Assembly: GCA_051294375.1 (NCBI GenBank)
Contig: CM119269.1
Span: 17,780,265-17,844,264, forward strand
From: Paraspadella gotoi
Lineage: Eukaryota > Animalia > Chaetognatha
DNA: 64,000 nucleotides
Direction of reading: 5' to 3'
Below, piece after piece: positions 24,901 through 27,900 of this stretch (position 1 is its first letter; the number at the start of each line of letters is the position of its first letter). Below the pieces are notes generated by a model that was given only the letters and a program-made list of their open reading frames with translations, had not been told where the DNA came from and ran no database searches. The position numbers and the translations under genes are program-made.

Positions 24901-27900
24901 TTTTACTACATCACTTTATCGTACATCATCATCATTATCCGAAACTCGCACCCTCACCTTAGAGGCGATGAGGCAAGCGATTCCGAAAGGCGAGTACCAC
25001 ATGACGATCCCGATCATCTTGAACATAACGAGCATCATGAGGTTGAAGAACTCGACGACCTTACCAACTTTCTCGTGCTGCTCGTTGGTTTTGTCGCAGC
25101 GGATTCGGGTCATGATCACCCCGATGGCGATGCAGAACACGATCAGGCCGCACATGTTCTCGCCTGGTGGAGAAGAAAACAAAAGGAATCGGTAAATGTG
25201 TGGACGCAACAAATTTCAGAGTAAGAATGAATTTATTCTTCGACAATTTTAATAGCAATAACTGTCAAAGGGCTCGGATGATAAGCCTAGAACAATGGTG
25301 TTTACAAGGTCAAGGTTTGACCATAACGGGAAGAGCAAACAATCGAGGTTAAGGTTGAAATTAAGGTCAATGATTTGACCGAGGTTGCCTGTTGTCGTTG
25401 TTTGTCCACAATAGTTTATGCAAAATTTTGGATTAATTAAAGATAAAGTATCATAAGTCTAAACGAAAATAGAGAATACGTCGTCGTCGGACTGAAATAT
25501 ACAATGTAATTCCTCGTCGAAAAATATGACTATAAATACACCGCCTCACATCCACCATCTTTCAGCCAATACCATTGGCTCAGAGGGGGAACACACCATC
25601 CCAGGCGTTCCATCCACAGTCCCTAACGACTTCCCTCTGCGTTGGCAAAGCGAGACCGTCCTACGGTAACCACCGTGGTCCAGTGACTGGATGCGTCACT
25701 GAGGGTCGGAAGCCCCCAAAGCCAACAGTGAGATGCCCCATCCCTATGGGCATCACAGGCAACCCGGCAGTTGCCATAACTCGACATTTAACAATTAAAA
25801 GAAGGAACCATGTAAAGGATTAGTGAAATAAAAGTTGGGTTTCTTTTTGTCTCGAAAATAACCTATTTCAGCGTAGAATTTTCACTCTCGACAACGGGAG
25901 TCACGTGATTGCTGATCAGTCGTGACTCGTGAGAAGCAACGATATCAGTCGTGAGGCGTGATAGCTTTCTGACAGGGGCGAGAAATCGCGGACACTTGGT
26001 CGGGAGACGAGTGATATAATCATAGATATGTAGTCGGGTATTGCATATGTTCACCAACCGCCTTGGGAGCCTGGTTCCAAGTCCAGGACCCGTTCCATGG
26101 CTGCCCTCCTCAGCCGACTAAGCTCCATATCCACAGATATAATCATAATCATAAATAATACGGCGTAAAGTCCATAAAGCGATTATTAAACGCAATATTG
26201 ACGTAAGAAAGGTGCGCATGTACCTACGCGTTTAAAAATATTGATTTGGCAAATTTTTAAAATCGTGAAATTATTGGATTTTTATGAAATTGGACTTTTA
26301 TTTTATTCAACGTTTATCGACAATCAGTAATTTATTAACGAATACGAAAACGTCGCTACGAAAAAGCGGCTTATTGCGGGAGAGGTTCGGTTCGATGGTC
26401 TTTTGCAGCTGTCGACAGAAAATACCAACAAACGGTCGGTAGCGTTGGCGTTGGCGTGAATTGAGGTTTTATTTTTAGGAGAGTTCGAAAGTCGAGGGGT
26501 GTGTCGAAATTGAATTAATGAGCTCGAAATATGAGGATTGAAGAAGCGAGAGTCCATTTAAGCTAAAGATGAGGAATTGGTGTGGTGCAATTGGTGCAAG
26601 GGTTGTGATATCTTGACATCTTGACATCTTGAGTGGGGGTTAACTTACGTTGACCTACCCTTTGTTTTGTTGAGTTAAGTTAAGAAAATCGAATAAATTT
26701 AAAGGGATCTTAAAAAAAAGTAAAATATTGTGATTAATAAAAAATAGAGAAAGAATCTTGAAATCTACTAAAATGTCAGGAAGAAATCAGAGGCCATGAA
26801 AACGCAATTTATCGACGGTTATATTTAGATTCTTTATTGCAAAGTGAGGATTTATGAGTCAATGGTGAAGAGGCCGGCCCATAGTTTTAACGGGAGGGGG
26901 TCGCGAAGAAAGATAAAGCGATAGTAGTGATAATATAATGTTTCAAAATGGTTAAAAACGGCATACGGAGACTAAAAAAAGATCGAGTGGCCTCTTTGAC
27001 GCATGTTTTAAAACTTAAATGACCTCATGACTCATTACGGAGTTTCTCTTTGCCTTCAGTTAATGATGGAATCTTCGATGCTATTCGTTTTGACCTATGG
27101 TCAAGCCAATATGATCCAATAAGACCTCAAAGTTATGCAATTAACCTTTAGATTATTCATTTTCACAGCGAGAATTACTATCTAATGTGACCGCTAGAAC
27201 CCGCAACGGTTTGAGGTTTGAATATGAAAGGGAGAGGGGGAAGAGGAGGGGGAACGGCCCGATGTTTAAGCCTCGTTGCGCGTCAGTAACAGACTCCTGA
27301 TAGAATTAACTTATTAAGGGGTTAAGGAACTTTTGACATCAAAACGAGGCGTTGCCTGACGTTCACTGGCGCTGCCTGACGCCCATTACGATCGCTGGTG
27401 TCCACTGTCGCTTCCCGACTATCCTTATGTAGCCTGACGTCCCCTGACACTGCCGGACATCCTTTGGTTTTGTGACGCAGGTTTTATGAAACATCAGGCG
27501 TTAATAGATACGTTTCTGCTACTTTCTAAAGACGTTACGTCGTTAAAAATAATCTCACCTGCCGTGTAGGTGACTTTTCGCTCGAAAAAATCCTCCTTTT
27601 CTCCAGAATCTTCAGAAGTGTCGTTGATCAAATTGATCTAAAAAAAATAAATAAAACAAGGAACGGTTATTCCAAGGTTTTGCGCCGGATTACTTTTCTA
27701 TTTACTTTCTTATCCCTTGTATTTCCGTGTATTGAGGCGACTTACCATAAGGTTTGCATCGGAATCATATCTTTTATTCCTTATAGTTTATAAGATTTCA
27801 TTAAAAACAAAAGGCAGCGCTAGTAGTCGCTTAGATTTTAGGTTTTTTACCGACCGACAGACCGACCGAAAAGTGACTTATAGAGTTGCTCCGCGAGTAC

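Follow-up and report, generated by a model that had tools for sequence, protein, structure and literature searches.

Twister ribozymes follow a fixed succession of stems and unpaired strands, given in Table 1 of PMC8501958 as P1, UAA, P2, GC, P3, P4, G-UCCCAAGC, P4, GUAAA, P2, GAGGG and P1, and natural representatives are permuted at P1, P3 or P5 (PMC5408937). At least ten letters of their loops L1 and L4 are more than 97% conserved (PMC5408937). The P1 stem, although conserved, can be dispensed with: a twister that lacks it cuts almost as fast as the wild type (PMC5408937, PMC11662667). Flaws in P1, P2 and P4 are tolerated, and the letter preceding the cut is free to vary; mismatches in the pseudoknots and changes of A1, A2 or the general-base G are harmful (PMC11662667). 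Twisters have been reported in many new invertebrate groups (PMC11662667), and type-P1 variants lie at the 5′ end of the retroelement Perere-3 of Schistosoma mansoni (PMC8501958). Hammerheads are known from the Sm-alpha elements of schistosomes, which resemble short interspersed elements (SINEs), from Penelope-like elements and from animal retrozymes (PMC6765202; PMC7229834; bioRxiv 10.64898/2026.07.22.740005). The sequence that interests us here is a repeat copy at 25539-25779 (+) of a 64,000-nucleotide stretch of the chaetognath Paraspadella gotoi (assembly GCA_051294375.1, contig CM119269.1, 17,780,265 to 17,844,264; hereafter the window), for which an earlier note had proposed a third SINE family with a twister frame. 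We consider it fairly probable that this is a truncated and mutated repeat copy with a permuted, type-P5-like twister frame, predicted to be inactive here and likely to be active in the source copies of its family.

The bounds of the copy come from contigs of four sequencing runs of the same organism, three of them DNA runs (X1, X2 and X4), which were placed on 25400-25900 at a likeness of at least 80%. They identify 25539-25779 as a single member of the third family of short interspersed repeats in the window. The contigs at least 80% alike over it number 4074 in X1, 6447 in X2 and 4956 in X4, and the summed word depth in X1 passes from about 27 outside to between 1e5 and 9e5 inside, with steps at 25538/9 and 25778/9. 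Many copies of the family reach about 15 letters further in the 5′ direction (loose-end consensus before 25538, agreement 0.64-0.69), so the copy starting at 25539 is 5′-truncated by at least about 15 letters; in the family as a whole, depth falls toward the 5′ side. The copy is intronic and antisense to an SLC1/SDF-type transporter gene, of which a sodium:dicarboxylate symporter family exon (SDF, E = 4.5e-11) lies at 24919-25215 (-).

Along the forward strand, the frame opens with the 5′ strand of P5 (GTTGGC, 25641-25646). There follow the 3′ strands of L2 (AAA, 25647-25649) and of P2 (GCGA, 25650-25653), both assigned from the layout in PMC8501958 Table 1, then GA (25654-25655), whose G 25654 stands at the place of the twister general base (role from PMC11662667), and the 5′ partner of the T1 pseudoknot (PK2), CCG at 25656-25658, which pairs with CGG at 25707-25709. 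An eight-letter linker (25659-25666) occupies the place of the P1 hairpin. Next come TAA (25667-25669), with the predicted scissile bond between T 25667 and A 25668 in the frame of the same Table 1, the damaged 5′ strand of P2 together with T2 (25670-25681), and a P3 hairpin of six pairs with a seven-letter loop (25682-25700, minimum-energy fold). P4 (25703-25716) closes L4, TCGGAAGC (25706-13), by pairing GGG (25703-05) with CCC (25714-16); within this loop, CGG is the partner of T1 and GC that of the T2 pseudoknot (PK1). The 3′ strand of P5 (GCCAAC, 25721-25726) pairs with 25641-25646 in the minimum-energy fold, and a 3′ tail of two hairpins (25727-25779) ends in GTTGCCATA. All the letters that the earlier note had named for T1, L4 and P5 are in place. 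The minimum-energy fold of 25638-25730 forms P5, P3 and P4 (-34.6 kcal/mol, z = -2.1, with 8 of 200 shuffles equally good) and adds a hairpin built from letters private to this copy. The general strand order (5′ strand of P5, AAA, 3′ strand of P2, GA, T1, eight-letter linker, TAA, 5′ strand of P2, GCC with T2, P3, P4 with a loop of the form T-NNN-AAGC, 3′ strand of P5) is, as read from the letters, the twister layout of PMC8501958 opened at the P5 stem, between P4 and the A-rich strand.

The damage to P2 and T2 which the earlier note had seen in this copy was found again: CCAC faces GCGA with two of four pairs, non-adjacent, and no GC follows P2. Eight letters at 25672-79 are private to this copy and stand in place of a GCG in the family majority, a replacement that removed T2 and most of P2. 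Depth drops to about 1400 (X1) across these letters; the majority GCG was read from the consensus of the loose contig ends on either side, after 25671 and ahead of 25680, with an agreement of 0.70-0.84 among 49-86 contigs in each DNA run. In the majority, TAA is followed by CCGC, GCC and then P3. This order restores T2 and a P2 in which three of the four positions, all adjacent, form Watson-Crick pairs with GCGA, and the absence of P2 and T2 from the consensus, which the earlier note had named as an observation that would count against the fold, was not borne out. The majority further departs from this copy at 25570-71, by one extra letter at 25621, and at 25664 (C>G), 25692 (T>G) and 25745 (T>A). 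The G at 25664 makes up 99.6% of the depth in X1; with it the linker is self-complementary, and because of the C in this copy the linker here is not. No variant of at least 10% was seen at T1, L4, GA or the first two letters of TAA in the third-family contigs (X1/X2/X4). The copy at 25539-25779 is thus a dead relic, a predicted inactive twister, and its value is that it represents the third family, which shows the second compensating change in T1. Set against the list of published twister requirements, the third-family majority appears to lack the P1 hairpin and nothing else.

Two other families in the window carry the same frame. Family D is present as one copy at 57781-58033 (+), with P2 ATGT/ACAT (four of four pairs), T1 CGG/CCG, the linker TGCCGGTA and, at 57962-57969 (+), the loop L4 TCCGCAGC. 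Between 1280 and 1995 contigs per DNA run fall on it, with bounds at 57779-81 and 58033, and the family majority departs from the window copy at three places, two of which make it more twister-like: 57956 C>T lengthens P3 and 57971 T>C gives P4 GGG/CCC. Family A has four copies, arranged as two head-to-tail pairs. The pair at 590-1255 (-), with a period of 419, has a complete frame in both copies; that at 2441-3110 (+), with a period of 421-422, has a second copy (about 2870-3110) decayed in L4 and P4. The three intact cores lie at 653-702 (-), 1072-1121 (-) and 2577-2626 (+), and their L4 loops at 653-660 (-), 1072-1079 (-) and 2619-2626 (+), with CGG in L1 and CCG in L4 as in D. The two dimers share a 185-letter spacer and are mutually inverted, separated by 1.2 kb of A+T-rich DNA. 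The P2 of family A has three pairs in a register shifted by one. Finally, an internal fragment of a related (sub)family at 20538-20585 (+) has CGG at the place of T1 and keeps TAA and CCGC; its part 20538-20582 aligns to 25627-25671 (80% over 45 letters, E = 1e-5), but it ends before L4 and is for this reason uninformative on the pairing of T1.

T1 is CCG/CGG in the third family, CGG/CCG in A and D, as the earlier note had read it and as a loop-word scan and inspection by eye confirm, and GGG/CCC in published twisters (the textbook form, in agreement with PMC8501958 Table 1). Along this series, both strands of the predicted T1 helix have changed twice in succession, and the three Watson-Crick pairs are kept each time. 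TAA is found in the third family, A and D, which supplies the N-A dinucleotide of the cut site and the second A that twisters require (PMC11662667), and the general-base GA directly precedes T1 in the third family (25654-55) and in D. T2, that is, GC after P2 with GC at the end of L4, is missing in the target copy and present in the third-family majority, A and D. The A at location 6 of L4 is kept in all three families. Between A and D, 20 of the 21 unpaired or pseudoknot letters are identical and only 7 of the 35 stem letters, and P5, P2, P3 and P4 pair in both despite this replacement. Kept core letters combined with replaced stems that are still predicted to pair form the pattern expected of a selected fold.

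A descriptor was written from the published layout: A and the T1 strand, a linker of 3-12 letters, TAA, a P2 of 3-4 letters with at least three pairs, GC and, within 90 letters, a P4 of at least three pairs around T, the reverse complement of T1 and AAGC. In its strict form it matches the window three times, in the intact A copies, and a relaxed form that accepts either A or C at one loop letter adds D; the target copy is not matched. Dinucleotide shuffles of the whole window (200, both strands) gave one match in all, a contrast that is somewhat inflated since the descriptor was written after the copies had been seen. Covariation was counted on 12 pairs (P2, T1, T2 and P4) in four distinct rows from three independent families; P3 and P5 were out of register in the MAFFT alignment of five natural cores, and for this reason only the other helices were counted. 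Paired cells amount to 85.4% against 74.3% in shuffles (reached by 7 of 500), and the covariation score is 0.431 against 0.216 in shuffles (reached by 3 of 500) and 0.014-0.167 when the partners are slid. T1 is paired in 100% of its cells over the four distinct rows, with one double change. The claim of the earlier note that the fold was selected is thereby upheld in part: the conservation of the core relative to the stems and the covariation score speak for it, and the count of double changes (below) and the small number of rows do not.

In source copies, the RNA would be expected to adopt a twister core with both pseudoknots and to cleave itself within TAA, between T and the first A (25667|25668 in this copy), with this A acting as the general acid and the G of GA as the general base. 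A P1 hairpin is absent; published work describes P1 as dispensable, and it may instead be supplied between two RNAs or tandem units.

Several observations weigh against this interpretation. No twister match was obtained with Rfam release 15 on the whole window, either at the gathering score or at E<=10, nor at E<=10 on 25500-25850 or the D copy, nor on 121 letters around the best-kept A core, where a match of about 10 bits would have been listed. This silence is likely due to the covariance models, which would score the pseudoknot letters as fixed and expect the P1 hairpin in the P5 form (Twister-P5, accession RF02684). The best P2 register in family A absorbs the G of GA, and in the minimum-energy fold of this family the T1 and P2 strands pair with each other (GG.CGGG / CCCGCC), in competition with the twister fold. 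The predicted fold of the D copy is no more stable than those of its shuffled versions (z = +0.90), and D has a C at the first A of the AAGC in L4, TCCGCAGC being the family's own form. An A-to-C change at the trans A.A contact is tolerated (PMC11662667), and we infer, beyond what that source states, that the C-bearing letter of D is the one at this contact. Pairs with double changes number four against 2.7 in shuffles and are reached by 94 of 500, which is not unusual, and the covariation argument is carried by three families in four distinct rows, which makes it good but not formal evidence. Lastly, no step in depth is seen at the predicted cut site in the third family or in D: the segment that precedes this site is retained in most genomic copies, from which it follows that cut RNA was not the usual template for copying back into DNA. 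A single contig of run X6, possibly an RNA run, aligns to D from 57929 onward, one letter past the predicted cut, and is of unrelated sequence ahead of that point; as one case among thousands it is given no weight.

The absence of a depth step bears directly on another interpretation, in which a twister-derived or twister-like module is kept for a role other than cutting, such as a handle for reverse transcriptase or RNA stability, and source copies cleave at no useful rate. In its favour, most copies span the predicted cut site, and cutting would part the promoter-like head from the tail; the missing P1 hairpin, the competing hairpin of family A and the lack of an Rfam score point the same way. 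Yet the fixed letters are exactly the catalytic and pseudoknot ones (TAA, GA, T1, GC and AAGC; 20 of 21 between A and D), A1, A2 and the general-base G would be superfluous in a purely structural role, and twisters without P1 are active (PMC5408937). We therefore regard a module without cleavage as unlikely. Alternatively, the likeness to twisters could be due to chance in G+C-rich repeat bodies, with coincidentally matching triplets. The Rfam result could be read so, as could the fact that the frame and the descriptor were defined after the copies had been seen and that the target copy fails the descriptor. Nevertheless, four matches in the window, from two families with unrelated stems, stand against the one obtained in the 200 whole-window shuffles, the third-family majority repairs exactly the two elements missing here (P2 and T2), and the core letters are conserved while the stems are replaced, so that coincidence appears highly improbable.

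A further question is what kind of element carries the frame, since its carriers could be short non-autonomous elements that rely on Penelope-like retroelements, equivalent to the hammerhead retrozymes of animals but with a twister, rather than SINEs dependent on long interspersed elements. The ribozyme would in that case trim tandem or read-through transcripts, and this possibility is compatible with a self-cleaving twister. The two head-to-tail dimers of family A in inverted orientation recall the partial tandems with an adjacent inverted copy that are the insertion pattern of Penelope-like elements (PMC8557442), among which the Naiad clade, abundant in invertebrates and without hammerheads, inserts in (TA)n (PMC8557442); D and the third family are flanked by A+T-rich DNA, and neither a poly(A) tail nor a clear target-site duplication is seen. 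No transfer RNA (tRNA) was detected, and hammerheads that act as dimers with very short helices are known in such elements (PMC6765202). On the other hand, no reverse transcriptase or GIY-YIG domain was found in 104 of the 117 reading frames of at least 85 amino acids in the window (the 13 left out being repeat-rich), members of D and of the third family lie scattered as single copies whose ends are fixed, and a B-box-like word is present in D. Searched for the 8-letter loop words, the Penelope-like consensus file of PMC8557442 gave scattered matches, with no twister frame in the nine passages shown. The Penelope partnership is possible but, on balance, doubtful.

The overall build of the three families is similar: a 5′ hairpin with differing but pairing arms, then a head with box-like words and then the twister-like core. 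D and the third family both end with a covarying hairpin and with the same last nine letters, and a compensating change separates the third-family copy from D in the first hairpin of the tail; within the window, the tail word GTTGCCATA occurs in these two repeat copies only. The B-box-like word of D has weaker counterparts in A and in the target copy (by eye only). ARAGORN detected no tRNA gene (0 genes), no Rfam tRNA match at E<=10 was obtained on D or the target copy, neither of these has a poly(A) tail or a convincing target-site duplication, and no Pfam family was matched by reading frames across the copies. The elements are dispersed, short and non-coding, occur in thousands of contigs with fixed ends and show 5′ truncation, and in this respect are candidate SINEs. 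The view of the earlier note that the twister may be the shared central domain of a SINE superfamily finds support in the three families with the same frame and overall build, and is weakened by the lack of an Rfam twister score and by the tentative SINE class. A miniature inverted-repeat transposable element, suggested by the inverted termini TGTGGC / GCCATA, is less likely, since the copy is truncated at its 5′ end and these termini are very short and imperfect. A metagenome scan with the P3-P4-L4 pattern of D and the third family returned 0 loci.

The place of P1 deserves separate consideration. The linker between T1 and TAA has six letters in A and eight in D and the third-family majority, and with 6-8 letters it allows at most one or two intramolecular pairs around a four-letter loop, and a P1 hairpin is not present. 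All three linkers are self-complementary when G-U is allowed (chance 0.053 for six letters and 0.020 for eight), and D and the third family differ at two of the four linker pairs, in both partners each time. The inner pairs are out of reach of a hairpin, and their maintenance would fit a pairing with the linker of a second RNA or tandem unit. Since each of the three families has such a linker, P1 may be supplied in trans, from one RNA to another or from one tandem unit to the next, as in the very short dimer-acting hammerheads of Penelope-like elements and newt satellites (PMC6765202). Homodimer cofolds favour dimers for every core, mostly by generic hairpin swapping, and are uninformative; the linker duplex appears in the best cofold of D only. 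We tentatively suggest, as a rather speculative extension, a SINE-like superfamily of extremely abundant animal elements, built around a natural twister opened at P5, with T1 re-paired twice and P1 replaced by a palindromic linker, which would be active only from two RNAs or tandem units and invisible to Rfam. Such a twister, gated by concentration or by tandem arrangement, would parallel the dimeric hammerheads of Penelope-like elements.

The window around these copies is animal DNA of about 36% G+C with split host genes. Besides the transporter, pyrimidine 5′-nucleotidase exons (UMPH-1, E = 1.5e-11) lie at 11079-12551 (-); about 54000-62200 (-) is occupied by a long coiled-coil gene that matches no Pfam family and has the D copy inside its span. 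With 40 bits (E = 1.4e-4) against a gathering score of 56, the hairpin at 5982-6067 (-) resembles the mir-279 family below threshold; its mature arm is well aligned, and it is probably a real protostome microRNA gene. That at 48768-48855 (+), a near-perfect 88-letter A+T-rich hairpin scoring 51.5 bits for mir-3688 against a gathering score of 84, is more likely an inverted-repeat element than mir-3688. Long (GA)n/(TC)n microsatellites are numerous (7267-7484, 16201-16430, 36345-36637, 55660-55820 and others) and account for most of the weak plant-microRNA rows of the Rfam E-value scan. Two G+C-rich segments about 1.5 kb from each other, at 20977-21117 and 22478-22703, consist of short palindromic words (GGGGCC / CCCCTGGGG runs) and may represent a further repeat family. 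An assembly gap lies at about 51600-51700 (10 N in the window), and the frame across 51494-51901 reads XXXX there.

None of the three loop variants occurs in the supplement of PMC8501958. No paper on a twister inside the body of a SINE was found, and Perere-3 was the only link between twisters and retroelements encountered, in a search that did not cover the candidate list of PMC11662667. Literature searches with strings of 9-15 letters gave primer-type matches for the short ones only and none for the 15-mers. If the source copies do cut, tens of thousands of twister-derived sequences would be present in one animal genome, uncounted by current models, and ribozyme surveys would be biased against re-paired pseudoknots and P1-less forms. 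The natural series GGG/CCC, CGG/CCG and CCG/CGG would, if confirmed, test the freedom of T1 to change. The elements would also represent a second ribozyme class, after the hammerhead, in short non-autonomous retroelements, and a tractable system for the role of self-cleavage with a cut site in the middle of the RNA.

Among known systems, the closest is the circularly permuted type-P5 twister, with which the predicted frame shares the order of the elements, the TAA cut site, GA with a three-letter T1, the GC of T2 after P2, an optional P3, a P4 that closes a T-NNN-AAGC loop, and two pseudoknots that can both be drawn (PMC5408937, PMC11662667). Unlike it, the frame has a self-complementary linker of 6-8 letters instead of a P1 hairpin and a T1 of CCG/CGG or CGG/CCG, obtains no Rfam score and lies inside a high-copy animal repeat. 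The twisters of Perere-3 share the tie to a many-copy retroelement and a weak or irregular P1, but they are of type P1 with the canonical GGG/CCC and occupy the extreme 5′ end of an autonomous element, which their cutting defines (PMC8501958), whereas the motif described here is permuted and lies mid-way in an element that is short and non-coding, after a promoter-like head, and the copies keep both sides of the cut. The mini-twister without P1 (Kosutic et al. 2015, via PMC5408937), which cuts at a near wild-type rate, is likewise a twister core devoid of P1; it is however a laboratory construct with open ends, and here the would-be P1 strands form one continuous short linker. Finally, the hammerheads of Sm-alpha, Penelope-like elements and retrozymes are of another class, and the dimer action proposed for the present candidate twisters is deduced from their sequence. 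In both cases, nevertheless, a small self-cleaving motif (a predicted one here) resides in short non-autonomous retroelements, with tandem units (family A) and a helix that is too short intramolecularly, the self-complementary letters of which are able to pair between units.

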